This document shows, in pieces, positions 5,274 through 54,038 of a stretch of DNA of 64,000 nucleotides. This DNA is from a virus. Numbering within the stretch: the stretch's first letter is position 1; the number at the start of each line of letters is the position of its first letter. The stretch lies in IMG/VR virus record IMGVR_UViG_3300010885_044958, positions 1 to 64,000 of that record, one strand, 5' to 3'. The translations under genes and the position numbers were made by a program. The notes under the pieces were generated by a model that saw only the letters and a list, made by a program, of their open reading frames with translations, made no database searches and was not told the DNA's origin.

Positions 5274-5299
5274 CATGTTAATACCTAAAACTCAATAAA

Positions 5300-5704
5300 A
5301 TGGCTAATTTCAAACTCGCATGGGCTAAGACTAGGATTCACGAAGGAGGTTATGTCTTAGATAAGGATGATGCCGGGAAAATGACATATAGAGGAATCTC
5401 ATATAGGAGTTTTCCAAATTGGCCTGGTTGGGCAGAAGTTATTAAATCTAAAAGACTTCGTGGAGATATAATACTTACTCTAGAACCTCTGGTAGAAAAA
5501 TTCTATATAGACAATTTCTGGAATCCAATAAAAGGCGATGAAATTATAAATCAAGAAGTTGCCGATGAATTATTTGATTCTTCAGTTCTTCTAGGCATAC
5601 ATCAATCAGTAATACTTACTCAAAGATCTTTAAACATACCTGAATCTGGTAAAATGGATTCTTCTACTTTAAATATTTTAAATCAAAACAATCCTTATGC
5701 TTAA
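5300..5704 (+). CDS. Glycoside hydrolase family 108 lysozyme (endolysin)
   Basis: N-terminal HEGGY...D..DAG..TY.GI motif, followed by Y...FW...GD and LFD..V..G, typical of GH108. Confidence 0.88.
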   Translation: MANFKLAWAKTRIHEGGYVLDKDDAGKMTYRGISYRSFPNWPGWAEVIKSKRLRGDIILTLEPLVEKFYIDNFWNPIKGDEIINQEVADELFDSSVLLGIHQSVILTQRSLNIPESGKMDSSTLNILNQNNPYA

Positions 5705-5948
5705 ATACTTATTTGCATTTTTACTAATTTTTTCAGTGCAAAATGCATCCGCACAACCAATAGACTCAGTAGCTTACTACAGACATAAATGGTTGCAATA
5801 CAGTCTAAAAAATGACACATTAATGCACAAGAACTATATACTTAACAAAAGACTAAACAAATTAGTATTTTACGAAAATCTAGTTATAAAGAAACCAGAA
5901 TATATAAAATTCTTGAAAGGTTGGCAATGCAGGACGCTTAGTAACTAA
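5697..5948 (+). CDS. Small secreted/periplasmic protein (possible lysis accessory)
   Basis: Signal peptide MLKYLFAFLLIFSVQNASA with an AxA cleavage site. Overlaps the lysin stop by 8 nt. Confidence 0.6.
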   Translation: MLKYLFAFLLIFSVQNASAQPIDSVAYYRHKWLQYSLKNDTLMHKNYILNKRLNKLVFYENLVIKKPEYIKFLKGWQCRTLSN

Positions 5949-5951
5949 CTG

Positions 5952-6208
5952 TCTGATCTAACCGATTTGGTAAATAGATTGGTGATAAAAACAAGTCAGG
6001 GCAAAGCCCTAGCCCTAACAAACTTTACCCTGACTACTTCTAACCGATCAGTATAAATGAGTTGGCGAATAGCAGGAAACAAGTCATGAAGACCTTACTA
6101 CTCTTTAAGATAAAAAAACTTAAAAGAAACAATCATTCCCGGTTCCTATGGTTGAGGTTCGGTATGCCATCCTGATTATATTGGCAAAGATTTCTATCAG
6201 TTCGGGAC
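5952..6208 (+). ncRNA. Candidate structured RNA / cis-regulatory element
   Basis: Intergenic region of higher GC with a duplicated unit (CTAACCGAT...TAAAT...TTGGYGA...AAACAAGTCA). Several stems, including GTCAGGGCAAAG/CTTTACCCTGAC, TCCCG/CGGGA and TGCCA/TGGCA. Confidence 0.4.
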
Positions 6209-6226
6209 AATAAAAAAGCCCATTTA

Positions 6227-6511
6227 ATGATTTCGAGAGAATCACCAAATGAGCTAGATATATTAAAAATTGATATATCCCAAACTGATCTTAGCATAGA
6301 ATCTCTCGAATCCTATAATAAAATATACAACAATATTTTCAAAAAACCAAATGCAACTAATAAACTGGTTCAAACAGTTCTCACACCAAGACAGGTTGCT
6401 ATGTTCAGAGCCTGTGTAAGCTATAGAAGGTCCAAGAAGTTGCACTTGGTAAGCAAAAATACGTTATCTTTGTTGAATAACAAAATTAATCTTAAATATT
6501 TTAAATTCTAA
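6227..6511 (+). CDS. Hypothetical protein
   Basis: 94-aa ORF. Its 3' part overlaps a promoter-like TATCTTTG (6465-6472). Confidence 0.4.
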   Translation: MISRESPNELDILKIDISQTDLSIESLESYNKIYNNIFKKPNATNKLVQTVLTPRQVAMFRACVSYRRSKKLHLVSKNTLSLLNNKINLKYFKF

Positions 6512-6515
6512 TACA

Positions 6516-8855: not shown

Positions 8856-8862
8856 ATCTTTT

Positions 8863-8904
8863 AAGTTTAGTTTTTTAAACTAAATAAATTTACGTATCTT
8901 TTAT
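8863..8904 (+). promoter_or_regulatory. Putative late-type promoter
   Basis: AAGTTTAGTTTTTTAAACTAAA palindrome followed by CGTATCTTTTAT (TATCTTTT 8895-8902), ahead of the giant-protein operon. Confidence 0.5.
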
Positions 8905-8923
8905 ATAACAACAATTAATTATT

Positions 8924-11900
8924 ATGGCAGGTTACAGTCCAAATCAAATAGATCAATATCAAGCAGGGGTAGCCCCCGAAGATATGAGCTTTTTGCAATA
9001 TGCGTTGACAACTAAGAATCAACAATATGAAACTGGACTTAACCAGGTAAAAAGTGTGTATTCTGGAGTGCTTAATGCGCAATTAACTAATCCTTTAAAT
9101 CAAGAAGCAAGAGATAAATATGTAGCAGAAGCGCAAAATAATATCAAAATTTTGTCAAAGGCAGACCTATCTTTACCCCAGAACGTATCTCAAGCAGGTA
9201 AAATATTTGCACCATTTTATCAAGACAATGATATTGTATCTGATATTTATACTACAAAAGGGCTTAATTCAGAAATCCAAAAAGGAGAAGCTGCAAGTAC
9301 AAGTACTGACAAAGATATAAGAGCTTCATTTAATCCAGAATCTGTAAAATATCTTCGAGGAAAATTGCAAGATTTATCAGAAGCTAAAAGAGGCAATGGT
9401 TCAATTCAAGCAATAAAAACAGAATCGTGGGTTCCTTTTAAAGATGTTACAGAATATCTTAATACAAATGCAAAAGGTTCTGGGTTAAAATATGAACAAA
9501 CTATAGATGGTACTTGGCAACTTACTAAAACAGAAGGTGGTCAAAAAGCTATTATTCCGTTTTCTCGTTGGGCAGATTCTCAAATAGGCCCACAATTTAA
9601 TGAACAATTCAGAATTTTAGGGGCAAATGCAAATAGGGATAAAATAAATCAATTAAGAAATCAAGGTATAGATAAAGAATCTGCTCAAAAACAAGTTGGT
9701 GTAGAAAATTTACAAACCTTTGTTCAAGATAAACAAACTTATCTTACTGGACTCAAAGCAGACCATGCAAGAGCAGAACAAGTATTGTCTGCATATGACC
9801 AAGGATTAACCAAAAGAGGTGGCGCAACACCACAAGAAGCTGCTATTAGAGATCAAATGAAATCTGATGTAGATTTGTATGCCGGTCAAATAGATAGACA
9901 CACTTCAGATATTGCATCTTATTTAGGACAAGACGGGCAATTAAATTTAAATAATCACGAATCCCAAGCAGTAATTGCTAATCCAGATTTTGTTAGTGCA
10001 GATAAGATTAAAACAGGAATGCTTAATAACTGGGCAACTGGTTATGCAATGGGTCATTATTCTCAAGATATAACTGCAAATCAAGGTTTTGCAAATCAAA
10101 TGAATTATGCAATATCTAAAGGAACCCTTAGTTTAGCTGTTGCAGCACAACAAGAAAAACAAAAACAAGATGCAATATTAAATCAATTTAAATTACAAGA
10201 ATTAGCTAATTCAACTGCAGAAACAGATCTTAAATATTATCAAGCAGGACTTACAAGAGGTGTGGGTGGAATATCAGCAACAGACCCTTTAACAGGTGCA
10301 ATAACTTTAACTAAATCTACTAAAGATTTTGCTCACGTAGATGAACAAACGTTATATGAAAGAAAAGTTGCATTTCAAAAATCTCAAATTGGCAATGCAT
10401 TATACAGTACAGATTCTAGAGCACCTGGAGTAACTAAGCTATTGGAATTTGCAGGTGTGCTAAGTCCAGATGAATCTGCAGTATTTAATACATATATGAA
10501 TCAGTCTTGGTCTGGAGAAAAACCTTCTACAAGTCCAACAGTTCAACGAGTAATAGATAAATTACATGCGCAAGGAATTTTAAAAGCAGATTGGCATGAT
10601 TCACACGAAGATATGAATAAATCTATAAATGCAGATTTACTTGCCTATGCAACTAATAATATAGCAAATATATCTAGAACCCTCACACCTTTACAAAGAC
10701 AATATTATCTTGAAAGTGTAGATAGACTTGAAAAAACAACTGCAAATTATAATTCAGAACAAGCAAATATCCAAAAAAATGTTATAAATGAATTAGCAAA
10801 AGATGTTACCCACAGATATTCAAAAGTAACTGTTATTGATGAAAACAGTGGTAAACCAAGAATTGCTAATACAAAAGATATTTCTAATAAATTTACAGAT
10901 TTAAATCTAGAAGATCTTTATGGTAATGAGGTATCATTAACAAAAACAGATATAGGTAAAGCCTATGCTGGAGATCAGTTAAAAATGCACCAACCATATT
11001 TTGACGCAAGTGGTAATTTAATGCATCCATTTGATTTTAAAATTGGAGATAAAGTTTATAAAACAAATAATCCTTACCAAGCAGCAGATTTGTGGAATAG
11101 ATATCAAAATACACAAACTAAATTTGGAACATCTGAAGAATTTATAAAAACACAAAAGGAGTTATATACACACGCAAATCCCTATGCACATGCATTTAAA
11201 GATGAAACAGGTAAATATGCTAACGATATAATTCTTCCAGAACAAACACCAACTACACATAAGGTTATAAACGCAATAGTAAATGAAGGTAATTATACAG
11301 ATATATTTGATAACAATGGAAAATCTTTAAAACCACACGATGACTTGATGGTTGCCTTAAGAAATGTTGGACTTAGTGATGAAAAGAAATTGGACGAAAT
11401 TATAGGCAATGTAACTATGAACCCTGTTGGATATGGTCAAACACCTACAATTACTTTACATTTAAATACAGAACGCGTTAAAGATGAAGCAGGTAAGAAT
11501 GCTTATGCGGATGTAGCAAAATTAGTAAAGGCTGGTGCATCTGAAGTTACTTTAGAAATAGATCCAACAACTACAAATCCATTTCTTAAGAAAATTTTAC
11601 AACATGCAGTACAACCACAAAATGATTATTTTCCAGAACTAAAAGAAGGTAAGAAAGTAGTTAGTACACCATTACGTAATCAAATGGGTTCAGGTTATAT
11701 AATATCTCCAAATAGTACAGACCCAAGAAGAATTTCTGAATATAATGTTAAAGTAGATAATTATCAATTTGATACAAAAACGGGAGAATTTATAAATAAA
11801 CCTTTTGTTCAAAACTATCCAAATACTTATTCTGGAACAGATTTACTTAATGAAATAAATAAAATTCAAGCACAGACTGCGCAAGCAAATGAAATTTACT

Positions 11901-11989
11901 TTCAAACTTACAGTAAAAATCATCCAAAAATATCAGTACAAGAATTAGAAAAAAGATATCAAGCAACAGTCGATGCTCAAAATAGATAA
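8924..11989 (+). CDS. Large virion cargo/ejection protein
   Basis: 1021-aa helical protein. First of four consecutive giant ORFs, in the position crAss-like cargo genes occupy. Confidence 0.65.
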   Translation: MAGYSPNQIDQYQAGVAPEDMSFLQYALTTKNQQYETGLNQVKSVYSGVLNAQLTNPLNQEARDKYVAEAQNNIKILSKADLSLPQNVSQAGKIFAPFYQDNDIVSDIYTTKGLNSEIQKGEAASTSTDKDIRASFNPESVKYLRGKLQDLSEAKRGNGSIQAIKTESWVPFKDVTEYLNTNAKGSGLKYEQTIDGTWQLTKTEGGQKAIIPFSRWADSQIGPQFNEQFRILGANANRDKINQLRNQGIDKESAQKQVGVENLQTFVQDKQTYLTGLKADHARAEQVLSAYDQGLTKRGGATPQEAAIRDQMKSDVDLYAGQIDRHTSDIASYLGQDGQLNLNNHESQAVIANPDFVSADKIKTGMLNNWATGYAMGHYSQDITANQGFANQMNYAISKGTLSLAVAAQQEKQKQDAILNQFKLQELANSTAETDLKYYQAGLTRGVGGISATDPLTGAITLTKSTKDFAHVDEQTLYERKVAFQKSQIGNALYSTDSRAPGVTKLLEFAGVLSPDESAVFNTYMNQSWSGEKPSTSPTVQRVIDKLHAQGILKADWHDSHEDMNKSINADLLAYATNNIANISRTLTPLQRQYYLESVDRLEKTTANYNSEQANIQKNVINELAKDVTHRYSKVTVIDENSGKPRIANTKDISNKFTDLNLEDLYGNEVSLTKTDIGKAYAGDQLKMHQPYFDASGNLMHPFDFKIGDKVYKTNNPYQAADLWNRYQNTQTKFGTSEEFIKTQKELYTHANPYAHAFKDETGKYANDIILPEQTPTTHKVINAIVNEGNYTDIFDNNGKSLKPHDDLMVALRNVGLSDEKKLDEIIGNVTMNPVGYGQTPTITLHLNTERVKDEAGKNAYADVAKLVKAGASEVTLEIDPTTTNPFLKKILQHAVQPQNDYFPELKEGKKVVSTPLRNQMGSGYIISPNSTDPRRISEYNVKVDNYQFDTKTGEFINKPFVQNYPNTYSGTDLLNEINKIQAQTAQANEIYFQTYSKNHPKISVQELEKRYQATVDAQNR

Positions 11990-17900: not shown

Positions 17901-18796
17901 TTGTAAAAGATAGAATGGGATTACCCTTAACGGTCAGAGAATATTTATTAAAAGGTTTTCCAGGAATTAAACTAGATGGAATAAATGAATGTTTGTCATT
18001 AACCTTTCCGCAATTATTACGACAAATAGACTCATACAAACAATCAAATGGTATTAATTATGCGGAAATAGATAGTCTTCCTATAATATATAGAGCAAGA
18101 ATTATATCAGAATTAGCAATTAAGGGAATTGATGTAGATGGGCAAACAAAATTAAGTGATATTGTTGAACATTTTACAGAACTAGCAGCACTTGAACAAC
18201 AACCAGAAATAAAACCAGCAACACATAATATAATTGCTTCAGATTATTTGTTAACTGGCGGTATAGATGTTATTCTTAGTTCAGATTATTTTTTACAAGC
18301 TCTTTCTGGTGCATTTATAACTGCAGGGGATAAAATTAATATTATTAGAAATAAATATGCTAAAGAAATAATTAAAAATGGTTTTGAAGATCTTAAAAGT
18401 TTTATTAATACTCCTTTATATAATAGTTTGATAACAGAAATTAAAAATGCTATTAAAGAAGTATATAACAATGAAGATGCAGACAAACTATTTGAAGATA
18501 TTTTAAAATACCCAACTGGGTTACCTTTTAAAGAAGGTAATAGAATAAGTATTGTTTTAGATAAGTTAAATGATTTAACAAAACCAGAAGAAGCAGAACT
18601 TCAAAGATTAAAAGATCTTTATGAATCTATGACTAATCCAGATGCGCAAACAAAAGAAACAGTAGAAAACAAAGATAATCTAACTACTAAAGACGTTTTA
18701 GATAAATTAGATCAAGACGAAACCAAACCACATATTCCAGAATCTAAAATAAATGATTTAAAGAAAGATTGTGATGATTTTTTAGGAATGTTTTAA
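11993..18796 (+). CDS. Giant virion ejection protein with Gly/Ala-rich membrane-like segments and coiled coils
   Basis: 2267 aa. Hydrophobic segments VGLGLLTAGTLGA and FISGFLTGAIGIGVVG, and long heptad regions. Lies immediately upstream of the RNAP gene. Confidence 0.7.
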   Translation: MPQSLNDVLNPQIDALPDHINLPHPDPVLPSVQTGSSGMASPDLFDNIYSQAAGRAQQNPEDYDLRAMNFDWDATRADRYTNSQYLNSVGFKPDAGQLNEYNYGQAQPWYKALWNTVAGTVANVGHGFYDQLSTWPDTFSALGHVAQGDFSLGSAFQSDELDQINKKSVAFQNAYPVYQTAAPDGFNWRSFGQEVQGLGALPGAILEMGAEQVGLGLLTAGTLGADAPVQAARALKSAQNLGRILDATGNMRKSWEAFNQSKTLKNSWDVLKNSAAIVGSGLEKGGIGHLPGIGNTLAFGADALNPGRSLGLAKTSINGFHALYSDLRDMNLAINMGQMSASGTYQTQLQKNQDDFKKLHGTNAQGQDWLDIQDNAQAAAKKDGALNAVAAMMLNKLSFHNILTPSRSIQEAIAANGLDYGNKIGINSASVAEKTGEKLFVKADGWEGFKQSFLSADLGNIFAHGLTFGTQMTTMSAIDKATEAYYSAVYNKKNLSWTDAVKQGIDAQFTKEGAKTFISGFLTGAIGIGVVGEKFTQGAKYGVERIRDRFDEVGKQERQERSAQNAADAKIFVDQFNELRKNPVNDQLKYVILQKEFAEKIASNLANSDKKGAQDAKSDATLVFLANAAKNGFMDVYLDHLKDYTKNLTSEELFAKFYGKDVEFNPDQHADLTKRLDTFFKQANDVRKIHNELIRKFPNPYNPYRFKQGTPEREAAMSDWNNFKESIALATYHKALTQDYVERLNNIMNDNGLSKGINNLGGFKSLPFTTVQALTDSSNLAREITSLQEQLKTSMSLIADTTGTEARQDAEYQKSKLNALTDYNQHLSAFQNAYREATTIKDPQQRQNAIDKAREDHQDNLQSTLQTIANIELKHNNLDAITTDDLERGMSKFMDYYQLTVDHGFATTYTNTILDPVGWGHYVGSMRLAREKAKNPPDTTQDKTTPPKAGEPTQKEFDGNLHGWNPKTKSWEPIVKGDIYDSKTGKWGPAPEPPEDKTKAEREKQETILKTHIDATNEAKIKYEENSQALTKAVDGHQQKVTDLDEHTKSLKTDLDNLKTNINLTPSEKATLVATIQKNIDKANTLKTGLAQNLTLLKEQQSILQSFSNVVNEYNKYLQQWQEGRDLIDTNKKPIVYAEIQGEMKHLGDEKTKLEQFLTDVKSKLKDINEQVKTVQEDFDFLSKEIDKSDVIRGTFDALKNLTTKEQYQKALTDLFAQENKKSAEIQDKELLSFYKNLLGKINKSTAEPEDINNILLQDLDDSVSTHLDLINNQKELIESQKEKEDALYKLEDRLAYLNTIGKTLFAGGIAPPKFPEPIYPEDIKDHDEDEPDTTDVERARNSFGHYNLDEFTKPFNKTQLRSHQPEHFEVESIKDRDGKNARIKVSTGENKNNEVWVTLDILDQSRFSSEDLNRLDTLANKILDALSDHLADNQDIKDFKTVRIGNLEYDLKHFANDELVTETEGTPRMANTIVEIPLDMQGENKAFLMPFNKDYDPHGIVTEDPNNIKIAIVNVKGEPIDKNGNVVESKDINYASIPFDESFINSPIEEQRELLERLYDGTITDEDKKTYLLSQWGHPEGFKDEQDMQNYIEDTIQKIQNYRQLHKYIQGELAAKRPVLLQIETKTVGIPVFEKAQEKDGKKVVPKNNLINRIVKPSKTFEELYHPNGQPVEVKFGDKGNLWFETKDGQQYPAESSKFTPEQINNVANAIDEYFQLNTILKSLRSEDEQVKRDFIRNKFLKSTLNFNEPTFEKDKDNEEIHNENNQKDWLKNGDPKLGKNSIWISGTKLYFPVAHSNKTITDKLEVLVIDWNDADFMDNLKGFLEELPFNISKKAWNNLDPYRVPDFSKDDYMTNGEKFANYRQYTISKDIIQTKMIEYGTKDANGNTLPQQKSVSLLFDLPQRDIILGKIEKEVAEIKPKTPITDIEAKKAEIVNNAEANKDYEILNILDDLKKGANKHLDDRLTAIVKDRMGLPLTVREYLLKGFPGIKLDGINECLSLTFPQLLRQIDSYKQSNGINYAEIDSLPIIYRARIISELAIKGIDVDGQTKLSDIVEHFTELAALEQQPEIKPATHNIIASDYLLTGGIDVILSSDYFLQALSGAFITAGDKINIIRNKYAKEIIKNGFEDLKSFINTPLYNSLITEIKNAIKEVYNNEDADKLFEDILKYPTGLPFKEGNRISIVLDKLNDLTKPEEAELQRLKDLYESMTNPDAQTKETVENKDNLTTKDVLDKLDQDETKPHIPESKINDLKKDCDDFLGMF

Positions 18797-18805
18797 TAAA
18801 GATAA

Positions 18806-21800
18806 ATGAGTTATTGTAACCCACAAGGCGTAAAAGATATACATCCAACATTATTAAAGGATGCAATAGATAATTTTAAGTATCTGGTTTTTTCTAATAT
18901 TAGAAAGAATGGTAATAATATAGATCATCTTGCTGATATGTCTCCAAAAGATAGGACAGATTTATTTAATAATACTTGGAATGCATTTGAAACTAAGGTT
19001 TTAGAAAAACCAAGGGAAGCCTATGCCTATTTAAAACAACAAAACCCGGATTTTACCAAAGACCAATTGCAAGAAAAGTTTTTGCAAGAGTTTAATCCTT
19101 TAAAAAACAATATCGAATTAATCAAGCAAAAAGAAGCGTTTATAACAGAATTTTCTAATTCATTAAAAGATCTTAAATTAAATCTTACCTTTAAAGCAAA
19201 AACGCACGAACCACTTTCTTACGAAGATCTTTTAGATAAAGAATTTGGCGAAGAAGGTAGAGAAGGTATTGTAGTAGATAAATTTGGTATAGATAATGCT
19301 GATTTAGCTAGTCTTAATTTGCGTTTATTTTTTGCAAGTTTTGCAGATGAAAAATATCACGAAGGCGCAATTGTACCTAACAATAGTTGGTTTGGAATAC
19401 CTAAAACAGTAGACTATGATTTTGTAAATAGAACTATGAATTCAATAGCTCTAGATGCAGAAAATACTTTTCAGATATTAACAGAATTTGATAAAAGATT
19501 CAGATTACCTTCTGGTAGATATAAAGAAGGTTATTTATGGGGTAAAGAACTCAGAGAAGGTCTTAACTCAGGCGATTTAAGAAAACCACTTTCTCCAGAA
19601 GATGTTAGACTTATAACTGCTTTTGAAACTTATCTAAAAGGGACTAACTACGCACCTAAGCAGCTTATAATGAATAAAGGTGGTGAGAATACCATAATGG
19701 ACACCATTAACCACCGTAATGAATTAGATGCCGTAGATGCTTGGGAAAATAATGTTTTGGCAAACATCATGTCTGAAGAAAATACTTCAATGTTTTCTCA
19801 AGAAGGCGCAGAACTTGCTATAGACAGAGAATCAAAAGCTTATAAAGATTTCATAGAACCAACTACTGAATTACCTATAACTTTAGAAAAGCTAAAAACT
19901 CTTGGTGTAGAGATGCCTGTAGCAGACATTTTAGATTCACAAGATACACAAGTAAAATTAAATGATGGCACTACTAAGTCAATAAAAAATATAGTAGAAG
20001 ATTCTTATAAAGGTATTGTAGCTGCGTTGACTTCAAAAAAAGTTTCACCACAAACATTCGATGCTTTATTTTCAGAATCTGCAACAGGTAGGTTTAGAAA
20101 TCTAGCTAGAGTTTATAATGAAATATTTCCTGCAAACAAGAGATTTACTATTTTAAATGCAGACAATAAAGCACAATACATGAGACAATCTCAAAGTGTT
20201 GCAGCTCAACAATCTTTAAAAATTAATAATTTAAAATCAATAGCCGATTTAGAAACGGCAATACCATACTATAAAGCACAAGGATATCTTACACCACAAA
20301 GAAATATTGACGGACAAATAGTAATGAGTCCAACAATGAATGTTTTATTTAATGAATCAGGTCAAAGACGTACAGGTTCTAAATATGAAATAGTTTTACA
20401 ACAAGGTATTAGATCTAGAGAAACAGATGAAGGTACTAAAGAATCTAATCTAGTACAAGATGACCAACTTTTATATGCAACTAATTTAATTTTAAATAAC
20501 ACCTATCCTTTAGCAATGAATGGTGATAAAACCATGTCTTATGCAATACAACTTTCTAGACCTTATATGTTCTGGCGAGATGTAAATGGAGAAAATGGCA
20601 AACAAAATATAACAGAAACATTTTTATATTTACTTAGAGATGAAATGGATTGTGCTTGGATGGAACGAGTAAATCCTAAAAATATTAAAACTTTTTCTAA
20701 TGAGATTTATAAATTAGGTATATTTGGTAATATCTTACCCAAAGACTTATTAAAACAATTTATAGAAGAAGGTTATAATTGCAAAATAGAAAATCCTACA
20801 AAACCAGTTACTGCTTGGAAAATTACAAAAAATACAACGCAACTAGGTACTACACCAGATTTTACTACTTGGCGTGAAAAATTTATTCAGAAAAACTACA
20901 AATCTCTGCAAAACGCAATTGTATCAGAATATATAAATAATAATCAAGTAACAGCATTTATAGATAAACTAGAAGAATTAAATATAATAAAACTTGCAAA
21001 AGATGGCGCATACAAATTACAAGGCATCTCTAAGAATACAATAGAAAAGTTCTTAGGACAAGATATTTTCGGAGAAGATTCTACTAATGCTAAAAGAATG
21101 ACTTATTCTCAATTAGAAGATTTAGCTAGATATGTTTTAACTAATTATGCTATAGCTAGAGTTGAGCAAGATAAATTACATTTTGGAAATGCATCTTATT
21201 ACAAAGATCCATTTAAGAGGTGGAATATGTTTACTGCAATAAAAACTCAAATGACTTCTGATGAAGCAGTAGTAAAAGCACTTTCTCCAACAGCATTAGG
21301 CACAGATGGGTTTTTAACTAGAGTAGACAAAAGACAAGATACAATAAGTGCAACTAATCCTGATAAATTTATTCGAGTAATTTGCCATGCAGATCATATT
21401 TTTCAGCAAGAAGGTTATGAAAATATGGCTGAAGAATGGTTTAAACAACAATCTGCTTCTGGTTTAGATAAAAAGCAAATAGAAACTATTATAGGCGCAG
21501 AATTTAATTCAGACGAAACATTTAAAAAACTTATATTAATAGATAGCAAACCCGTTGGATTAGTTTCTAATTATATAGGTACAAAAGGCGCAGACTCATA
21601 TTCACATATGATACATGATTTTTATTGGAACTATCGCCAAAGACTTGGTGATATGGAAAATGATGAATATAAAATCATGAAATATGACTGGGCATATAAT
21701 ATTGAAGGTCTTTCTAATTTAAACTCAAAAGAATACCCAGGACGTAAATTTGATTTCTCGTCTGAAGTAAAACAACGAGCCAAAGAAATACTTAAAGAAT

Positions 21801-24800
21801 TTAATAATATTTGCCCGGATGTACCAATAAATTCTATAAAACCACAAGCATCTACATTTACAGATTCTGGTGTACCTGTTGCTGCAAAAACAGCTCCATC
21901 ATATTTGACTTGGAGAATTGCAGAAGGTACTGAAATGGAAAATGTTTATCTAGATGCAATAGAAAAAGGTATAGATTGGATAATGCCTGAATCTGCGCAA
22001 AAATTTGGCAATCCACAATCAATTCCACATATAGCTAATCTAGATGGATCAATGTCTTTAAAAGACAAAGATTTTCCTGTGCAAAACTGGTATCCAGAAG
22101 GTATGGGAAAACAGTCTGAAATAACTGAGCATGATTCTGTAAAGGGTTCTCAAGAGGCAAAACTTATTTATTCTAATGCAATTGCTAATCCAGAATTGGA
22201 ACAGCATATGCGAGATTCTATTGCAGCTAAAAATGAATTAACTAAGAAACTAACTAAAAAAGTATTGGCAGAATGTGCAATAGATGGGGTGCATACAGAT
22301 CCGGCTAAATTCTATTCTCAGATTAAAGATGCATTAAGAAGATCTGGTATATCAGAAGATAAACTAGAATCTTTTAATGACACAGACATGCCTTTTGATG
22401 CAAGTTCTATTAAGTCTCAGATAGAAAACATGTGCTGGTCTAAATTTAATGATGACATAGTTAATCCACATCATCCAGGTATTCAGGCAACACAGATACA
22501 TTCTATAGGCATAGAACCTATTAAATGGTCTTGGATAAACCCAGAAACAGGTCGGCATGAGCAATTGAATGCAAAACAAATAGTAGAAAAAGGTCTTTCA
22601 CAAAAAGATCTACATATAATTTCTCCAAGAACAGATATACCTAGAATAGAGAACGGTAAGATTCAACCAGTAAAAGTTATTATGGGTTGGCCTTTTAAAG
22701 GTGTAACTCCAAAACAATTAGGTTTAGATAGAGCAAAAGATTTTTCTAAAGGAACCTGGGATTTGTCTAAAGCAAAAATAGATCCAGATTTGCTTCGTGC
22801 AACAATGATTCGTATCCCTACACCTTCTATTAACTCAATTCACTATGTACAATTCCCTAGAGTATTTGATGCTTCTAGAGGTAATATAGTAGGTATAGGT
22901 TCTGGCATAGTAGTAATAGGTGGATCTGACTTTGATGGTGATAAAATGCAAGTATTTTTTAGATCTTTTAATGTATTAAAACATGATTTAGAGTCTAAAG
23001 AATTTAAAGAACTTTTATCCAAAAGAATTCTAGAATCTGATTTATCAAAACTTGGAGTAGAAACTGAAGAACAAAAGAAAGATTTAATTGCGTCCACTAC
23101 TTCAGATTTAATTTATAGAATAAATAATGCGGCAGAAACAGATGCTGGAAGAGATTTACATATTCAAGCAGGAACTAGGGATAATGACCACGAGTCTATT
23201 CAAGATATTGCTGCAGGAAATGATGCAAGTTTAGAATATTATAAACTAGTAAAAGATGTTTTACAACATTATAAAACACCTTTTGGAGATAATAAAAAAC
23301 GTATTATAAAAGTAAATCCAGAAGAAGATTCTGTAAAAGGAATCCGTAATAAACTCATGGATTATCGTGAAAAATTTCTGGAACACCCTGCAAATTATTC
23401 TGCGGTAACAACGCCACTACTTATTGGAGATCTTGAAGCACAAGCTAAAAGAATAGATGATTTAAAAGGAATTAAAGATGATGATTCAAATATTACAAAA
23501 AATCATGAACTAATAACTACTTTAGATGCTCGTAGGCAATTTATAGATGCTAAGAAAGGTCTTGGTCCAGCAGCTAGAGCATTTTCACAACATATTTGGA
23601 ATCAAGTAGCTCAATTTAGGCTTACAGGCCATTATAAAGTTCCAGGGCAATATACGTTTCTTGGATTAAATGAACCAGGTAAACCTAAAACAATTTATAA
23701 TCCGTTTACAACTGAACGAGTTCCTCTATTAGGTCAAGTATATAATGAAGGCCATCAATTAATTTCTGAGGCACTTGCAAATCTTACACAAGCCATACTC
23801 GAAGCAGCTAAAAATCCAACTGCATTTAAATTAGGAATTAATACAGATAATATAGGAGCAATATTTAATCAACTGTTACAAGGAGCCGAAGGTTATAAAA
23901 TAGCTCTTCTTGCAACACAACCTATTGTTCAAGATTTTTTACAAGCACGCAAATTAGGCGGATCACTTAATTATCAAACTAACATAGCACAAAAAGATGT
24001 AGAAACAGGTATAACTGAATCTTCTCTTAGTATGGATAAAATAGTAACTAAACTCCTATCTAAGTACGGAACTACTGTTAAAGATGCTGTTAAATCTGCA
24101 AATCTTTTAAATAAATTTACTCAAGAACAACTTGAAAGTGGTTTAGCTAAAAAAACTGATCAAGGTGCATTTTTAATAAAATATTTAGAAATGGAAATGC
24201 AAGGTAGTCCTGCATTTACCTTTAACCAAAGAATTAACTCAGATACAGTAGCTATAAAAACATTTATGGAACTTAAGAGACATAAAGCATTGTCTCAAAA
24301 AGTTGCTTCAGATGACTATATAGATAACCCAGAAGCTTTAGATAAAACATTTATTACTGAAATAGATAATGCTACCTCTCAAATAATGCAGGGTTTTGAT
24401 AAATATTTCATGACTTTGCATCCAGCATTTTCAGATTTGAATGATACAATGCTTAATTTTGTAGGTTCTCATCCTATGGATGGAGATGCACGAGACAGAA
24501 TTCTTAACAAATTTACTAACCATACAATAGACTTTTTACTTCAAACTTTACCAAATCCCCAAGGAGAATTCCTTTCTACTAAATCAAAAGATTTAATGAT
24601 TGGTGAGAATTCTATGGGCATGTTACTTGCAGACATAAAAAAATCTAAAGCAGGTGCTGCAAATCTGTGGAAAAATTTGCAACCAATAATAAATCAAGAA
24701 GGTAATGCAAATACAATGAAGATTCTGAAAATGAACCCTACTCCACACGAAATCAAACTTTTAATAGATGAAGTAAATACTAATTCTGCTCTGTCAAAAA

Positions 24801-27763
24801 ATCCTAAAATACAAGAATTTGTAAGAAATCTTGCAGGTTATAATATATTACAAGCAGGATTAAATTCTTCTAGAAACTCTATAAATAAGATTGTTCCTTA
24901 TAAACTACACAAAGATGTAGTAGAATTTGTATTTAGTCTTTATAAAGAGCATTTAGCAGCAGATACAATGCACGATTGGATTTCTCCAGACCTGCAAAAC
25001 TCTCTGCAAGAATCTTTCTTTAGAACTAACTGGTCTGATGAAAATCTTATAAAATCTGTAAAAAAACTAGAAGTAAAAGATGGTGATGAGGTGGGTGATT
25101 ATTCTATTGTGCCAGGCAAACCAGGAATAATTTTTTTACCAAACGCACATGCAGCAACTAAATATGATTATATAAAAAATGTAAAATATCTAGGTAAAGG
25201 TGAAAAGAAAACTGCAACACCAACTTTATTCAGAAAACTTGCACAAGACAAAAATAAAACTTATTATTCCAGAATAAATCCTTGGGGTAGACCCGGCATT
25301 CACGTAGAAATAAATCCTACAAATCAGCAATCTATTCATCCAGAAAATAAACCTTTTGATGAAAACGCAGAAGAATTTGTAAATAATCAAAGGACTTTGT
25401 TAGACAAGATAAATGTTGTACCTTTACCAGAAGATAAAGATTTGGAACAAGGAGATTTATTTAATCAAACCACGGCAGAATCAAAAACTGGAGAAATAGA
25501 AAAAATTAAACCAGGTATAGAAAAAGTTAAAAATACTGGATTAACTCCAGAACAAGGTAATTCATTTATAGATTTATTGCAACCGTTTATTTTACAACAA
25601 TCATATAAAGAAAATAAGGGTAAAAATGCAAACGACATGTTTCACATAGGATTAATGTGGAGCCGTAGAAATGATTCAAGATATCCTAATAAATCACAAC
25701 CAATATCTATAAAAAGTAGAGATTCTGCTTATGGATACACTATAAAAGATCAGCAAGGACGAGATTTGCCAAAATTAACTCAAGTGCAACCTATTTTAGA
25801 TTTTATTCAGTCTAAATTAGGTATTGATATGAGTAATTATGATTCAATGATTGGTAATATTTATGAAGAAAATACATTCATATCTCAACACAGAGATATA
25901 ACCGAATCTTCTGATGCGAGTAAATACCCCGTTATCGTTATAAATCTTGGCGCAGATGGTAAAATTTTATTTGGAGAAAATGCAGATACAAAACTAGGCT
26001 TAACTAATGGTTCTATTTATGCATTTGGGATTAATGGAGAAAACAGATATGAATCACATAGAACAGTTGATAAACTAGATTCTAATACTCCTTTGAAGCC
26101 ATTAGAAATGCCAAATGGTAAATCTATAAAAGATTATAGAATTACTCTTACATTTAGACGTGCTCAAGATTTAACTCCTGAAATGCCTAAATCACCAAAA
26201 CGTATTGGAGAACCAGTAGCAACTAAACCTGGACAAATTACTAAAATGTCTGATTTAACAGATCATTCTGGAGGAGCTTATGGTGCAGATACAGATTGGG
26301 ATATAATAGGTCGGAAAGAGTTTGGTTTAACTGATTTTAGACACTATAGAGAAGAAGGAAATGCAAGTTTAAGTAAAAGGCTACGTGACCTTGGTGTTAA
26401 GGCTACAATCGTCTCTAAAGAGGATTTAGCTACTGGATATGCAGAGTTAGAAAAAGTTTTTGGTAAGAAATTTTCAAAAAGTCTTGAAAATGATTTAAAA
26501 GCTAGAAACTATTTGCAAGTTAAAAATTCCGATGCCGTTTTTGCAATTGGAACTTTTAAAGCACCGGAAGTAGATAAATCTGTACCAGATAATACAATTG
26601 ATTCAACTAAATCTGTAAAATCTTATAAATTTACTCAAATTGAAGGTGGTACAAATGCAGCAGTACAAATGGCAATTGCAGTAGGAAAACCAGTGCATGT
26701 TTTTGATTTAACTTCAAAAACTTGGAATGTTTGGAATGGAACTAAATTTGTACAAGAAGAAACTCCTATTTTAACTAAAAATTTTGCAGGAATCGGCACT
26801 AGAGATATAGAAAACTATTCTGTAATGAAAGATGGTCAATGGGTTTCTAGACCTAGTTATAAAGGAATGGCTGCTGAAAAATCTGCACAAAATGCAATTC
26901 GTGATGTTTATAAAAAGACCCAAGAAAGCATTGGGCAGCCCACAACTCCTTCAGAACCAATACCAGAAGAAAAAAATACTGATATTGTACAACATAGCAA
27001 TTTTGCTAATATGATAGATAATGCAAATAAAGTTGTTAATTCAGGCAATCTTATACAAGATGTTGATGGGTCTTATTCACGCAGTAAAGAGCCACAACCA
27101 AATCTATCTTATCACATTGATAAAATATCTGGTAAAAAAATATATTTTGATGAAAATGGAGATTATTATTGGTCAGATGATAACAGTTTTAAAGTGTATA
27201 TAAAATCTAAAGGTGGCAATCCATTTGGTGAACCTATATATGACATAACCCCTGTAGAACCAATTAATTGGCAAGATAAAATATCTGAAATATATCAACA
27301 GAAATATGGTAATGCGCCAGAAATAGTACAAAAACCTAGTGCAAAAATAACTGAACCTGGTAGATATATAACATTTAAAGGTGAAACATATATTGTAACT
27401 AAATTTAATAAAAATGATACAATACAAATATATAATCCTTTAAAAGAGGGTGTCGAAGCAAAAAAATCTATTGCTGGACGCAATTTAGAATTATTGGAAT
27501 ATAAAGCAAATATAGTAACTTATAAAGATATTGATTATATAGTAACACCTAAAAACACTATAATTTCTTTAAAGACTAATAAAGTAATGAATTGGGGTGA
27601 AGAAAATGGTGATAGAAAAAATATTTTAGATTTGGCAAACCCACAAGAAAAACCAACAAAATCTAAAGAAGAATTTGTTAGTAAGTCCCGTGAAATATAT
27701 AAAATAATGAAACAAGCAAATGCAACAGAAGAAAGTATTCTGGATGCAATAAAATGCCTTTAA
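18806..27763 (+). CDS. Virion-packaged single-chain DNA-dependent RNA polymerase (crAss-type) with C-terminal AlkB-like and SLOG domains
   Basis: Catalytic GGSDFDGDK (DFDGD at 22928-22942), preceded by RIPT...SI and ESAQKFG. The size and gene context match crAss-like virion RNAPs such as phi14:2 gp66. Confidence 0.88.
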   Translation: MSYCNPQGVKDIHPTLLKDAIDNFKYLVFSNIRKNGNNIDHLADMSPKDRTDLFNNTWNAFETKVLEKPREAYAYLKQQNPDFTKDQLQEKFLQEFNPLKNNIELIKQKEAFITEFSNSLKDLKLNLTFKAKTHEPLSYEDLLDKEFGEEGREGIVVDKFGIDNADLASLNLRLFFASFADEKYHEGAIVPNNSWFGIPKTVDYDFVNRTMNSIALDAENTFQILTEFDKRFRLPSGRYKEGYLWGKELREGLNSGDLRKPLSPEDVRLITAFETYLKGTNYAPKQLIMNKGGENTIMDTINHRNELDAVDAWENNVLANIMSEENTSMFSQEGAELAIDRESKAYKDFIEPTTELPITLEKLKTLGVEMPVADILDSQDTQVKLNDGTTKSIKNIVEDSYKGIVAALTSKKVSPQTFDALFSESATGRFRNLARVYNEIFPANKRFTILNADNKAQYMRQSQSVAAQQSLKINNLKSIADLETAIPYYKAQGYLTPQRNIDGQIVMSPTMNVLFNESGQRRTGSKYEIVLQQGIRSRETDEGTKESNLVQDDQLLYATNLILNNTYPLAMNGDKTMSYAIQLSRPYMFWRDVNGENGKQNITETFLYLLRDEMDCAWMERVNPKNIKTFSNEIYKLGIFGNILPKDLLKQFIEEGYNCKIENPTKPVTAWKITKNTTQLGTTPDFTTWREKFIQKNYKSLQNAIVSEYINNNQVTAFIDKLEELNIIKLAKDGAYKLQGISKNTIEKFLGQDIFGEDSTNAKRMTYSQLEDLARYVLTNYAIARVEQDKLHFGNASYYKDPFKRWNMFTAIKTQMTSDEAVVKALSPTALGTDGFLTRVDKRQDTISATNPDKFIRVICHADHIFQQEGYENMAEEWFKQQSASGLDKKQIETIIGAEFNSDETFKKLILIDSKPVGLVSNYIGTKGADSYSHMIHDFYWNYRQRLGDMENDEYKIMKYDWAYNIEGLSNLNSKEYPGRKFDFSSEVKQRAKEILKEFNNICPDVPINSIKPQASTFTDSGVPVAAKTAPSYLTWRIAEGTEMENVYLDAIEKGIDWIMPESAQKFGNPQSIPHIANLDGSMSLKDKDFPVQNWYPEGMGKQSEITEHDSVKGSQEAKLIYSNAIANPELEQHMRDSIAAKNELTKKLTKKVLAECAIDGVHTDPAKFYSQIKDALRRSGISEDKLESFNDTDMPFDASSIKSQIENMCWSKFNDDIVNPHHPGIQATQIHSIGIEPIKWSWINPETGRHEQLNAKQIVEKGLSQKDLHIISPRTDIPRIENGKIQPVKVIMGWPFKGVTPKQLGLDRAKDFSKGTWDLSKAKIDPDLLRATMIRIPTPSINSIHYVQFPRVFDASRGNIVGIGSGIVVIGGSDFDGDKMQVFFRSFNVLKHDLESKEFKELLSKRILESDLSKLGVETEEQKKDLIASTTSDLIYRINNAAETDAGRDLHIQAGTRDNDHESIQDIAAGNDASLEYYKLVKDVLQHYKTPFGDNKKRIIKVNPEEDSVKGIRNKLMDYREKFLEHPANYSAVTTPLLIGDLEAQAKRIDDLKGIKDDDSNITKNHELITTLDARRQFIDAKKGLGPAARAFSQHIWNQVAQFRLTGHYKVPGQYTFLGLNEPGKPKTIYNPFTTERVPLLGQVYNEGHQLISEALANLTQAILEAAKNPTAFKLGINTDNIGAIFNQLLQGAEGYKIALLATQPIVQDFLQARKLGGSLNYQTNIAQKDVETGITESSLSMDKIVTKLLSKYGTTVKDAVKSANLLNKFTQEQLESGLAKKTDQGAFLIKYLEMEMQGSPAFTFNQRINSDTVAIKTFMELKRHKALSQKVASDDYIDNPEALDKTFITEIDNATSQIMQGFDKYFMTLHPAFSDLNDTMLNFVGSHPMDGDARDRILNKFTNHTIDFLLQTLPNPQGEFLSTKSKDLMIGENSMGMLLADIKKSKAGAANLWKNLQPIINQEGNANTMKILKMNPTPHEIKLLIDEVNTNSALSKNPKIQEFVRNLAGYNILQAGLNSSRNSINKIVPYKLHKDVVEFVFSLYKEHLAADTMHDWISPDLQNSLQESFFRTNWSDENLIKSVKKLEVKDGDEVGDYSIVPGKPGIIFLPNAHAATKYDYIKNVKYLGKGEKKTATPTLFRKLAQDKNKTYYSRINPWGRPGIHVEINPTNQQSIHPENKPFDENAEEFVNNQRTLLDKINVVPLPEDKDLEQGDLFNQTTAESKTGEIEKIKPGIEKVKNTGLTPEQGNSFIDLLQPFILQQSYKENKGKNANDMFHIGLMWSRRNDSRYPNKSQPISIKSRDSAYGYTIKDQQGRDLPKLTQVQPILDFIQSKLGIDMSNYDSMIGNIYEENTFISQHRDITESSDASKYPVIVINLGADGKILFGENADTKLGLTNGSIYAFGINGENRYESHRTVDKLDSNTPLKPLEMPNGKSIKDYRITLTFRRAQDLTPEMPKSPKRIGEPVATKPGQITKMSDLTDHSGGAYGADTDWDIIGRKEFGLTDFRHYREEGNASLSKRLRDLGVKATIVSKEDLATGYAELEKVFGKKFSKSLENDLKARNYLQVKNSDAVFAIGTFKAPEVDKSVPDNTIDSTKSVKSYKFTQIEGGTNAAVQMAIAVGKPVHVFDLTSKTWNVWNGTKFVQEETPILTKNFAGIGTRDIENYSVMKDGQWVSRPSYKGMAAEKSAQNAIRDVYKKTQESIGQPTTPSEPIPEEKNTDIVQHSNFANMIDNANKVVNSGNLIQDVDGSYSRSKEPQPNLSYHIDKISGKKIYFDENGDYYWSDDNSFKVYIKSKGGNPFGEPIYDITPVEPINWQDKISEIYQQKYGNAPEIVQKPSAKITEPGRYITFKGETYIVTKFNKNDTIQIYNPLKEGVEAKKSIAGRNLELLEYKANIVTYKDIDYIVTPKNTIISLKTNKVMNWGEENGDRKNILDLANPQEKPTKSKEEFVSKSREIYKIMKQANATEESILDAIKCL

Positions 27764-27781
27764 GAAAAAATAAAATTAGAT

Positions 27782-30700
27782 ATGCAAGCCTGTCCAGATA
27801 AAAACAATCCATTATACCAAGACTTAGAAAAAGAATTAGGTGAGATAAACGCACTAGCAAGTTTTCACATGCTTGGTACTGGAGAAATTCCTAGTATTGA
27901 AAAAGCTCGTGAATTATTAGAACCAAAACAAAATATTGAAAATAAAGGTTTTGGTGTTGGTATATTGAATCCTAAATATAATCAACTATCTTTTGCAGCA
28001 CAAAAGCATCTTGGTGCTTATTTGGAAAAATCTCGCGGGTTATTGCCCCCTCAATTTTTTGACGAAGGCACTAGAAAATTATGGGTTAAGTCTAGTACTA
28101 AAAAAAGTAGTAAACAATATAATATTATAGATCCGGAATCTGGAGAAATAATTGCAGAAAAGCAAAGGCTTGATATAAATCAAAAACAATCTTGGCAAGA
28201 TAAACAAACAAAAGTTGCTAATGAAATTAATGATTTAAAAACTAAATCAGAAGAACAAAAAAAATATGGAATAGGTGAAATTGTTCTAGGAAAAAGATCT
28301 GGAGTAGAAAAAGATGTATCTGTAGCAAGAAAAGTTGCATTTTTAGCGTATCTAAATAAACCTTCTAAGGAAAGATATGTGAGAACTGCTGCAAACTATT
28401 TATATGAAGGAGCAAAGTTTAGTGGGGTAAATATTCCAGTAACTATTATCGAAAAGATGCTAGAAAGATTTCCAAAAGAAATTTGGGATTATATTATAGC
28501 TAAAAAAACTGTTGAAGAACCTACATTAGGTGCATTAACTCGTGGCCATATTCCAGAAATTACTAGTATAAGTAAAATATCTAAAATTAAAGCAATTGAA
28601 AAAGCGTTAGGTGTGGAGCTTTTAGGTAAAGAATTTAAAACAAGAAGAAGCTATAATAATTTTGATGATAGACAATGGGGTGAAAATATAAAAATAGATC
28701 CTAAAAACAGAGGTAAATATTTATCTGCTGATATACGTGAATATCTTGAACAAAAAGGTCTTGCAAAACCCCCTATTTCTGATGATGAAGGTATGCGTAA
28801 TTATGCAGAAATTCATAATATGACTTTAGAACAAGTAAAAGAACTTGTAACACCAAAAGAACAAGCAAATGAAGATGGTTTATATATAGGTACTGAAAAT
28901 TATGACATGGAAATGTCTAAATTTCGGCAAAACGTATTTAATACTTCTAAAACAGATGTTGCAATGCATAATGCAACTACACAACTTAAAAAAGATATTT
29001 CTGCTAAATTACAAGAAAAAATTAAATCAGGTGCAATTAAATCAGGATGGTTAGAAACAGGATTTCATTTATTTGATATATTATTTAATAAAGTTGGATG
29101 GCAAGAATTAGACCAAGCAGGTGATCCTAGTTTTCACACCGCATTTAATAGATTAGCTGCAATTGTTCATGAACCATTTCATGTAATGCACGCATTAACT
29201 TATGGTACTGAAGAAGAACGTGCAATGAAAAATGCCTGGGATCAATTATATTCTACTAAAATAGGCAGAGAAATAGTTGATTCTATGGAGTTACAAAATA
29301 GTTCTGAACATGTTAAATATGCAGAAACAGTTGCACATTTATTTCAAGCAATAATTCTACCGCCAGAATATTTAAAAAATCTTTCCCCAAAATACAAAAT
29401 TCTTTCAGACGCATACGCATATATACAGTTTAAATTAAATAACCCGGAATCTAAAGAAGAACCTTTAGGGGAAGAAACAAACAGTTCTTATACTGAAATT
29501 GAAAAGAAAGATGCTTTGAGCTTTTTTCAAAAATTTTTAAATTGGTTAATAAAAGCGTTTAATAAAGTTGCTGAATTTTTTGGAAAAGAACTACCATATT
29601 TAGAAAGAAATGTAGACATAGAAAAGGAACATGTTGGTGAAGATGAAAAACCTTCAAAACTAACTCCCTCTAAAGATTTGCAAACTCATGAAAAAGATTT
29701 TGTTGCTGCAATGGATAATTTATCTGCATCAATAGAACAATTATTAGATATAGATAAAAATAAAATAACTACAAATAAATCTGGAGAATTTTTTGCAGGT
29801 GCGGCAGACTTTAATATGGGTGAATCAAATATTGAACCTACTTCAGAGCAACCAACTCTATTTGACAATTCATTACCGTTTAATGAAGTAAAAGATAAAA
29901 TCTTAACAGGCTTTACAAAATACACCCTATATCCAAAAAGAATAGGTGATATAAAACTAAAAGATTCTTATACTACTAAAGAAGGTAAAATGAATAAAGA
30001 GGTTGCAAAATCTATGCAAAATTGGGTAGACGGTATTCCTGAATTTAAATCTGCTCAAATAGAATATAGTGCTGTAGAAAATGCAATTCGTATAATGCCG
30101 AGCCAGAAATTTTTTCCACAAACTGGCAGTATCACAGGAAATCAATATGTAAATCCAACATTTGAAACTAGTTCAGGATTAACTCCAAATCAAAATGTCA
30201 CACCTACTTCAGAACCTAATTACAAAAATACTAACAATCTTACACCAGAATCTTTTGAGAAATCAATAGATAAGATGAAAGATATGCAAAACAAAATAGA
30301 ACTGCATGACTTAATAACAGATCCAATAACAGGACAAGTAAGAGAACATAAATATACAGAAGAACTACCAGATGGTACAAGATTTATTGCAGACGGTTCT
30401 GTAACTAGTGTGGTAGTAGAAAAGAAACTTAAAAACTTTGGTTCTGGGCTACCACAAGATGATGTAGATAAAAAAATAGCAATCATTGCCTCTGAATCAG
30501 GAACTTTAGTGCATGGTTATGCCGAAAATGTTTGGAAAAATATTCTAGACAAAGATGGCAAACTATTACCAGATTCTGAATTTAAAGAAGATAATGAACC
30601 AAAACCTTCAGAAGGAGTAAATTATAGAATATATAATAAAATTCAACCATTTATAGAGAATTTTGCAAAGACTTTTCCAGAAGGCACTAGATTTTTCACA

Positions 30701-51890: not shown

Positions 51891-51917
51891 GTGTTTGTTT
51901 GTTGTTTTGTTTAAAAA

Positions 51918-51947
51918 TCGGGCTAGAATTATTAGTTCTAGCCCGTT
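51918..51947 (-). terminator. Hairpin (terminator or processing site) within the ligase cluster
   Basis: CGGGCTAGAA...TTCTAGCCCG stem with a T-run on the minus strand. Confidence 0.65.
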
Positions 51948-51956
51948 GTTAATAAA

Positions 51957-53397: not shown

Positions 53398-53400
53398 ATA

Positions 53401-54033: not shown

Positions 54034-54038
54034 AATTT

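Follow-up and report, generated by a model that had tools for sequence, protein, structure and literature searches.

The 64,000-nucleotide (nt) stretch of viral DNA analysed here (positions 1 to 64,000 of IMG/VR record IMGVR_UViG_3300010885_044958; hereafter, the window) contains three consecutive open reading frames (ORFs) on the + strand, occupying positions 11993-34279, that specify three giant proteins with very few cysteines. These are P0001 (11993..18796; 2267 amino acids (aa), 255 kDa), P0002 (18806..27763; 2985 aa, 338 kDa), which is an RNA polymerase, and P0003 (27782..34279; 2165 aa, 248 kDa); they are referred to below as the first, middle and last chain proteins. An initial annotation of the region had pointed out that the facing ends of neighbouring members carry a cysteine, while the first and last proteins are otherwise very Cys-poor, and both descriptions proved accurate. 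Translation with genetic code table 11 gave exactly the ends described: P0001 has cysteines at positions 2000 and 2260 only and ends in KKDCDDFLGMF; P0002 starts with MSYCNP and ends in DAIKCL, its cysteines lying at positions 4, 616, 659, 860, 1003, 1157, 1210 and 2984; P0003, with cysteines at positions 4, 1019 and 1718, starts with MQACPD. End-facing cysteines are therefore found at the C-terminus only of P0001, at both termini of P0002, and at the N-terminus only of P0003. Thirteen cysteines are spread over the 7417 residues of the three proteins (841 kDa combined). In the cargo block, the six ORFs that reach 500 aa have 15 in 9836 aa (0.15%), compared with 174 in 10,405 aa (1.67%) for the remaining ORFs of the window. 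The rest of the 134,236-base genome encodes no further giant Cys-poor protein.

Four + strand codons specify the cysteines in question. At the junction between P0001 and P0002, the donor of the proposed link 1 is the TGT at 18770..18772 (Cys2260, the eighth residue from the C-terminus of P0001), and the acceptor the TGT at 18815..18817 (Cys4 of P0002). At the junction between P0002 and P0003, the donor of link 2 is the TGC at 27755..27757 (Cys2984, the second-last residue of P0002), and the acceptor the TGT at 27791..27793 (Cys4 of P0003). The junction offsets are thus -8 and 4 for link 1, and -2 and 4 for link 2. The start ATGs of P0002 and P0003 are each the first possible start downstream of an in-frame stop, and close homologues start alike.

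P0002 bears the RNA polymerase catalytic motif DFDGD at residues 1375-1379 (22928..22942, + strand; within GGSDFDGDKM), and D1375, D1377 and D1379 were invariant in a 12-sequence alignment (alignment A1). A hidden Markov model (HMM) of the polymerase core, built from the window and viral loci, matched g066 of phage phi14:2 (E 6e-142), which is the crystallised crAss-type virion polymerase, and gp50 of crAss001 (E 7e-97); a tblastn search with the polymerase family alignment matched viral locus L004 at E 3e-156. The HMM of the last protein, built from 52 loci with the window left out, returned P0003 (E 6e-139), gp49 (2.5e-110) and g065 (3.6e-99), and that of the first 1100 residues of the first protein (55 loci, window again left out) returned P0001 (E 1.6e-84), gp47 (1e-73) and g067 (6e-33). 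Judged from these profile matches, P0001, P0002 and P0003 are orthologous to crAss001 gp47, gp50 and gp49 and to phi14:2 g067, g066 and g065, respectively, and would make up a crAss-type virion cargo set of first protein, RNA polymerase and last protein. The window's phage is uncultured; orthologues of the triad were identified as virion proteins by mass spectrometry (PMC10172136; bioRxiv 10.1101/2020.03.07.982082), as is also noted for the triad members in the phi14:2 record. Pfam and PHROGs contained no family for P0001 or P0003; a megablast search with positions 17800-28800 and a tblastn search with the polymerase N-terminus found no match among 50,697 phage records, in which the polymerase core found cr108_1 alone (23.7% identity); and the PDB yielded no sequence match to P0002 or to the P0003 family profile.

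Conservation and pairing of the terminal cysteines

The terminal cysteines singled out by the initial annotation are kept in most of the database homologues and in the orthologues from phi14:2 and crAss001. In a five-polymerase alignment, the only columns with cysteine throughout were those of Cys4 (5/5) and Cys2984, while the six internal cysteines of P0002 were unconserved; the Cys2984 column was nearly invariant in alignment A1 and invariant in alignment A3. Among the 54 database matches of P0002, cysteine was present in the last ten residues of 50 and at positions 2-8 in 27; 35 of them have two cysteines at most in 1900-5200 aa, and all 54 together have 150 in 222,404 residues. The four with no C-terminal cysteine are P0004, P0033, P0041 and P0046, the first of which comes from a 7.4-kb contig, its alignment covering only residues 1-1914 of P0002. 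Cys4 of P0003 falls in an invariant column of alignment A2, and all six P0003 matches have cysteine at position 3 or 4, this being the sole cysteine in ∼2400 residues in three of them. Five of the seven P0001 matches (one of which, P0064, is the window's own protein read from a later start) have a C-terminal cysteine, and none has an N-terminal one; the two that lack cysteine are weak partial matches. In homologue P0065 the sole cysteine lies at the same position as Cys2260 of P0001, and the first protein of L004 ends in ..KHQSCDNNIIEI.

The reference phages show the same terminal pattern in orthologous proteins. In phi14:2, the single cysteine of g067 (1797 aa) is its last residue, g066 (2180 aa) has cysteines at 3 and 2179 only, and g065 (1421 aa) a single one at 3; in crAss001, gp47 (2341 aa) has a single cysteine at 2339, gp50 (2412 aa) has cysteines at 5, 1334 and 2404, and gp49 (1349 aa) a single one at 5. 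The masses given for gp47, gp50 and gp49 are 262.5, 276.9 and 154.5 kDa (PMC10172136), ∼694 kDa together; both phages are cultured, phi14:2 on Cellulophaga baltica and crAss001 on Bacteroides intestinalis. At a cr108_1 junction, one protein ends in ..NLCK and the next begins MANVCPN. The crAss001 gp47 gene lies on the strand opposite to gp50-gp49 and the cysteine pattern is nonetheless present, so it follows the order of the proteins rather than that of the genes; the part of the initial annotation that had the cargo chained in gene order is not essential. The cr108_1 record (locus L002:10591-22181, MT774385) has its polymerase region annotated as two ORFs of 2967 and 798 aa with ∼290 nt between them, both of which are matched by the catalytic core (E 3e-93 and 6e-57), as might be produced by an intron, an insertion or a frame break.

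To describe the pairing of these cysteines over a larger set, viral contigs were scanned with the polymerase alignment, and the best 80 of 230 relatives yielded 71 loci. From these, + strand ORFs of at least 500 aa, read from the first ATG, were taken, along with adjacent pairs with intact junction ends and gaps of -60 to 1500 nt; this gave 131 pairs, which formed 113 clusters at 70% identity. In 63 clusters the upstream protein had a C-terminal cysteine and the downstream protein an N-terminal one, in 38 neither was present, and in 12 only the N-terminal cysteine was found; there was no cluster (0/113) with the C-terminal cysteine only (Fisher p 7e-20). At the 63 paired junctions, the N-terminal cysteine occupies position 3 or 4 in 55, and 0-2 residues lie beyond the C-terminal cysteine in 48. 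The residues around them form conserved motifs, for example ..EILxxIKxC followed by M..CPNxN..E[WF]. Terminal cysteines are the only ones in 91 of the 117 chain proteins, internal positions accounting for 40 cysteines in 309,223 residues (0.013%). In the examined loci and the database matches, the first protein never has an N-terminal cysteine and the last never a C-terminal one.

Each terminal cysteine might act independently, anchoring its protein to some other part of the virion (the capsid interior, the portal or other cargo) or bearing a modification, the head-to-tail match being a by-product. Several disulfides do connect subunits in structural parts of crAss001 virions, namely the portal vertex and tail (PMC10172136), and some proteins with an N-terminal cysteine, in loci L013 and L019, have no terminal partner. 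Independent anchors are nonetheless improbable: a C-terminal cysteine never occurred without an N-terminal one on the next protein (0/63), the outer ends of the first and last proteins are always free of it, and gene fusion, as described below, removes both cysteines of a junction together, which independent anchors would not do. Nine of the 12 clusters with the N-terminal cysteine only involve a different family, located after the last chain protein, with cysteines at positions 5, 10 and 18. Members of this family (L017:18290-21493, L024:19652-23668, L029:20794-23079 and six more) start with M..xC-x4-C-x7-C and continue into collagen-like GTSGTS repeats, and are perhaps fibre proteins. Two further ORFs with cysteine-rich N-termini were seen in the window's own genome (G000:C1:116320-116667 and 120586-122028).

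The possibility that the pattern arises by chance, from wrongly assigned start codons, or from a nucleotide-level signal such as stop-codon readthrough into one polypeptide, was also weighed, and can be given next to no credence. With the cysteines of each protein placed at random, none of 200,000 permutations filled all four junction-facing windows (the last 10 or first 8 residues; analytic p 4e-8); were cysteine as frequent as in the remaining ORFs of the window (1.67%), the same pattern would have a probability of 3e-4. Over the whole 134-kb genome, cysteine is found at positions 2-8 in 9 of 135 ORFs and in the last ten residues of 12 of 135. Start positions are conserved in homologues. What speaks for readthrough is that the P0001, P0002 and P0003 genes share one reading frame, three stops parting P0001 from P0002 and a single TAA (27761-27763) parting P0002 from P0003. 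This shared frame looks like a chance feature of the window, since the gaps at the 63 junctions range from -8 to 921 nt with no enrichment of multiples of three. In crAss001, moreover, the first gene sits on the other strand. Readthrough and mis-called starts were accordingly rejected, on the basis of the junction gap lengths and the first-possible ATGs. So were split inteins, the halves of which would need ∼100 and 35 residues, far more than the 0-7 residues found after the C-terminal cysteine and the 1-6 before the N-terminal one; none of the three proteins matched an intein family in Pfam.

Gene splits, gene fusions and the number of proposed links

A frequent arrangement in relatives is a polypeptide of 4000-5400 aa that combines the first protein with the polymerase, in many cases with just one cysteine, at or within a few residues of its C-terminus. 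Among 73 polymerase-bearing ORFs (of which 11, cut at the 5′ end, were left out of this count), an N-terminal cysteine was found in 17 of 17 polymerases separate from the first protein, compared with 0 of 45 fused to it. A FastTree tree built on 67 core segments (six of the 73 being dropped as short or identical) required at least five changes between the split and fused states, the window and L004 forming a split pair within a fused group. In independent pairs, the N-terminal cysteine accompanied the split in five of five (sign test, p 0.0625).

At the second junction, 66 of the 69 ORFs whose 3′ end is intact have a C-terminal cysteine. One of the three exceptions, L063, reaches the end of its locus. 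In another, L042 (6431-17773), the polymerase is fused to the last protein in a 3780-aa product that has no C-terminal cysteine, its sole cysteine being at position 4; the third, L057 (2-16900), is an all-fused ORF exceeding 5632 aa, truncated on the 5′ side where the locus begins, which takes in both polymerase and last protein and is entirely free of cysteine. Where an extra middle protein is present (L031 and L064), one pair of cysteines has been added in each case, at the site of the split. Relatives would carry from one to three links, the number tracking the gene splits.

These arrangements bear on which cysteines would be partners. Sequence alone cannot fix this in a three-protein set, and a different disulfide topology might be imagined in which the middle protein closes on itself (Cys4-Cys2984) and the first protein is bonded to the last. 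Such a topology is very improbable. The commonest, two-protein form allows only the C-terminus of the giant polypeptide to be joined to the N-terminus of the last protein, and the motif seen there, ILKxIC followed by MATCPN, is the same in the fused lineages and similar in the window and L004, both of which are split. Further, each additional split is accompanied by a single additional pair in the same place, as in L031 and L064, and in the one structure available for comparison, that of cyanophage A4, the bond runs from the C-terminus of one protein to the N-terminus of the next (PMC12002296).

A disulfide as the probable nature of the link

The best reading of these patterns would be a head-to-tail disulfide tether, given the conservation of the cysteines, the 63:0 pairing rule, their gain and loss with gene splits and fusions, and the structure from phage A4. 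In the cryo-electron microscopy map of that phage, density was reported for a disulfide between Cys1715 of gp27 and Cys5 of gp26 in the virion pre-ejectosome (PMC12002296, PNAS 2025), adjoining a gp27 C-terminal helix docked in a cleft of gp26 (PMC12002296). The record of this phage (Anabaena phage A-4L) shows gp27 (1717 aa) and gp26 (1114 aa) to be encoded by consecutive genes, with Cys1715 and Cys5 each the sole cysteine of its protein. As in the window, these are consecutive large ejected proteins with cysteines near their facing ends (-3 and 5 in A4). They differ in that A4, a T7-like phage of the Saffermanviridae, has one link between two proteins, while the window would have two in series with an RNA polymerase between them; the A4 paper appears to treat the bond as a structural detail rather than a general rule (PMC12002296). 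BLAST comparison of the A4 proteins with those of the window gave no similarity (E above 0.1), and the polymerase-core, last-protein and first-protein HMMs found no match among the A-4L ORFs. The window system may resemble A4 in its working, kinship not being supported by sequence. What the sequences show is the cysteine pattern, its conservation and its covariation with gene splits and fusions; a physical disulfide of this kind has been seen in A4, and the bond in the present phage, its purpose and its undoing are inferred.

The initial annotation had left open whether the neighbouring cysteines are linked by a disulfide or by a shared metal. The pairing of adjoining C- and N-terminal cysteines has strong support from conservation, the 63:0 rule, the splits and fusions, and A4; the metal fits less well, since there is one cysteine per end and no conserved histidine or other obvious metal ligand was seen in the aligned ends or termini, which would leave a site with two ligands only. 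More generally, the terminal peptides might be recognition motifs that dock non-covalently, the cysteines serving in buried packing or metal bridging and forming no disulfide. The conserved motifs around the cysteines would suit this, as would the assembly of the particle in a reducing cytoplasm; and docking certainly exists beside the bond in A4, in the form of the gp27 helix in its cleft (PMC12002296). Docking without a bond is, however, unlikely. Internal cysteine has been purged down to 0.013% while the junction ends retain theirs, which argues that its chemistry matters and not its bulk; at 0-8 residues from the chain ends buried packing is not to be expected; and the A4 structure shows a real disulfide (PMC12002296).

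Structure prediction on the terminal fragments, an approach the initial annotation had suggested, gave weak support at the P0002-P0003 junction. With each partner given a small alignment, the last 180 aa of P0002 and the first 420 aa of P0003 scored 0.46, 0.46 and 0.38, above the best of three controls (0.00). In the benchmark, 116 of 157 solved complexes attained the mark, as did 2 of 215 mismatched pairs; of these, just 18 solved complexes and both mismatches did so with a score no higher than 0.60. The predicted complex had partner pLDDT (predicted local distance difference test) values of at least 51 and a contact agreement of at least 34%, and no interface was returned.

The cargo triad is, then, probably joined by terminal disulfides into one thread, the bond being a reducible stand-in for a peptide bond that would free the polymerase upon reduction. 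The C-terminal cysteine of each protein would form an intermolecular disulfide with the cysteine at position 4 of the next, producing inside the particle a single N-to-C thread, P0001-polymerase-P0003, of 7417 residues and 841 kDa, in which the disulfide joint would do the job of the peptide bond of fused relatives. Such a thread would keep the cargo together, in a fixed order and a 1:1:1 ratio, for packaging and passage through the tail; the purge of all other cysteines would prevent wrong links; and the polymerase and the other parts would come free once the bonds are reduced in the cytoplasm of the host. The overhangs past each cysteine are short, so the joint would be barely wider than a hairpin and could pass the tail channel, for which proteins of crAss001 must partly unfold in any case (PMC10172136). 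Ejection in order and release by the reducing cytoplasm, both put forward by the initial annotation, are plausible.

Several points weigh against this chain. Two cytoplasmic thiols would have to become oxidised at some place and time, and the related gut hosts are anaerobes. The complex prediction at the P0002-P0003 junction is weak and returned no interface. The six internal cysteines of the window's polymerase could scramble the links. Some junctions are irregular: in L031 and L034, at the junctions counted as having the N-terminal cysteine only, the cysteine of the first protein lies 18 and 31 residues from the end, and L013 and L019 carry an extra MSC.. protein with no terminal partner, the cluster from L019 being the last of those with the N-terminal cysteine only. 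Five independent pairs cannot reach p 0.05, and the tree on which they rest was made with FastTree and has long branches at the window. The crAss001 atlas reports no ordered density for gp47, gp49 and gp50 (PMC10172136). Finally, the authors of the phi14:2 study propose cleavage of fused polyproteins into separate pieces (bioRxiv 10.1101/2020.03.07.982082); if so, fusion would be no lasting tether and the argument from splits and fusions would be weaker.

No thioredoxin or glutaredoxin family was found among the 49 other ORFs of the window. The word 'cysteine' has 0 occurrences in the accessible text of the crAss001 atlas (PMC10172136) and of the phi14:2 preprint (10.1101/2020.03.07.982082), and the one readable PDF of the two atlas supplements contains nothing on gp47, gp49, gp50 or a disulfide; the reduced and non-reduced mass-spectrometry data of the atlas may bear on the matter. 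Full-text literature searches returned no paper on terminal cysteines in crAss-like cargo proteins. A related depletion is known from N4-like phages (Schitoviridae), in which the ejection proteins (DEV gp71, N4 gp50) have 0.00075% cysteine as opposed to 0.865% for the proteome (PMC11445570). The likeness is that giant ejected proteins, including a virion RNA polymerase, are nearly Cys-free (0.15% vs 1.67% in the window, 0.013% in its relatives); the difference is that N4-like polymerases are single proteins with no cysteine at all, whereas in the window and its relatives the depletion spares exactly the junction-facing ends.

This kind of bond was already known from one structure, that of A4; what appears to be new is a chain of several links that includes the polymerase, the breadth of its occurrence in the order, and the way it trades off against gene fusion. 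No viruses of the human gut are more abundant than crAss-like phages, which have to pack and inject close to a megadalton of protein, among it the polymerase with which infection begins. If correct, a reducible covalent chain would explain why the proteins occur in a fixed ratio, why they contain so little cysteine and why fused and split genes replace one another so freely, and would turn a structural detail of A4 into a general principle of protein ejection. A more general proposal, offered tentatively, is that disulfides and peptide bonds might be interchangeable joints of a 'pseudo-polyprotein', in Crassvirales and at least one unrelated podophage: the injected load, polymerase included, would be a redox-cleavable thread whose N-to-C order sets the order and ratio of delivery, and whose joints could be cut or re-joined by adding or dropping one pair of cysteines.

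Modules of the chain proteins and neighbouring genes

Compared with its phi14:2 and crAss001 counterparts, the window's polymerase is ∼800 aa longer, has AlkB-like and DprA-like modules, and retains six internal cysteines. The AlkB-like 2-oxoglutarate-Fe(II) oxygenase module, which lies in the C-terminal extension (P0002 residues 2307-2451; 25724..26158, + strand), matched Pfam PF13532 at E 3.9e-7 with 30.9 bits, just below the cut-off of 31.2, and the DprA-like module matched phrog_768 (E 6e-4). Both modules (window 25724-27000; P0002 ∼2200-2750) share 40-54% identity with modules in giants of 4000-5000 aa that bear helicase domains. Many of the latter have cysteine at both ends only, such as P0012 (MINCTL...NKKC), with two in 4740 aa. 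With its two modules, P0002 is a candidate for the polyvalent proteins of phages, a name attributed to Iyer et al. 2017 for giant virion-delivered proteins that string together unrelated enzyme modules.

In P0003, a confident AlphaFold core (pLDDT 80-97) spans residues ∼823-1280 (window 30250-31600), the mean pLDDT of the model of residues 559-1500 being 68.6. A D..FDYK motif lies near residue 1020, and a zincin-like HExxH motif (HEPFH) in the N-terminal third of the protein. A Foldseek search of the PDB with the 559-1500 model gave no match at E ≤0.001, and no chain from phage A4 was among the matches listed; the best weak hits for the core were Cas4/RecB-type PD-(D/E)xK nucleases (E 3.9e-3).

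Upstream of the chain and not part of it, Cys-depleted cargo-like genes occupy 3414..11989 (+ strand). They include a 619-aa ORF (3414-5273; two cysteines) similar to crAss001 gp45 (BLAST, E 5e-7), a 779-aa ORF and a 1021-aa ORF, the last two with no cysteine. A gene for a glycoside hydrolase 108 lysozyme (5300-5701) lies among the cargo genes. In the neighbouring region, an endonuclease VII gene and a RecA gene are found at 36554-37087 and 40987-41985. On the - strand, at 48055-56032, genes for an amidoligase, a glutamine amidotransferase, an ATP-grasp protein, a peptidase C26 and a COOH-NH2 ligase are clustered, which suggests either the synthesis of a peptide-like small molecule or a modification.

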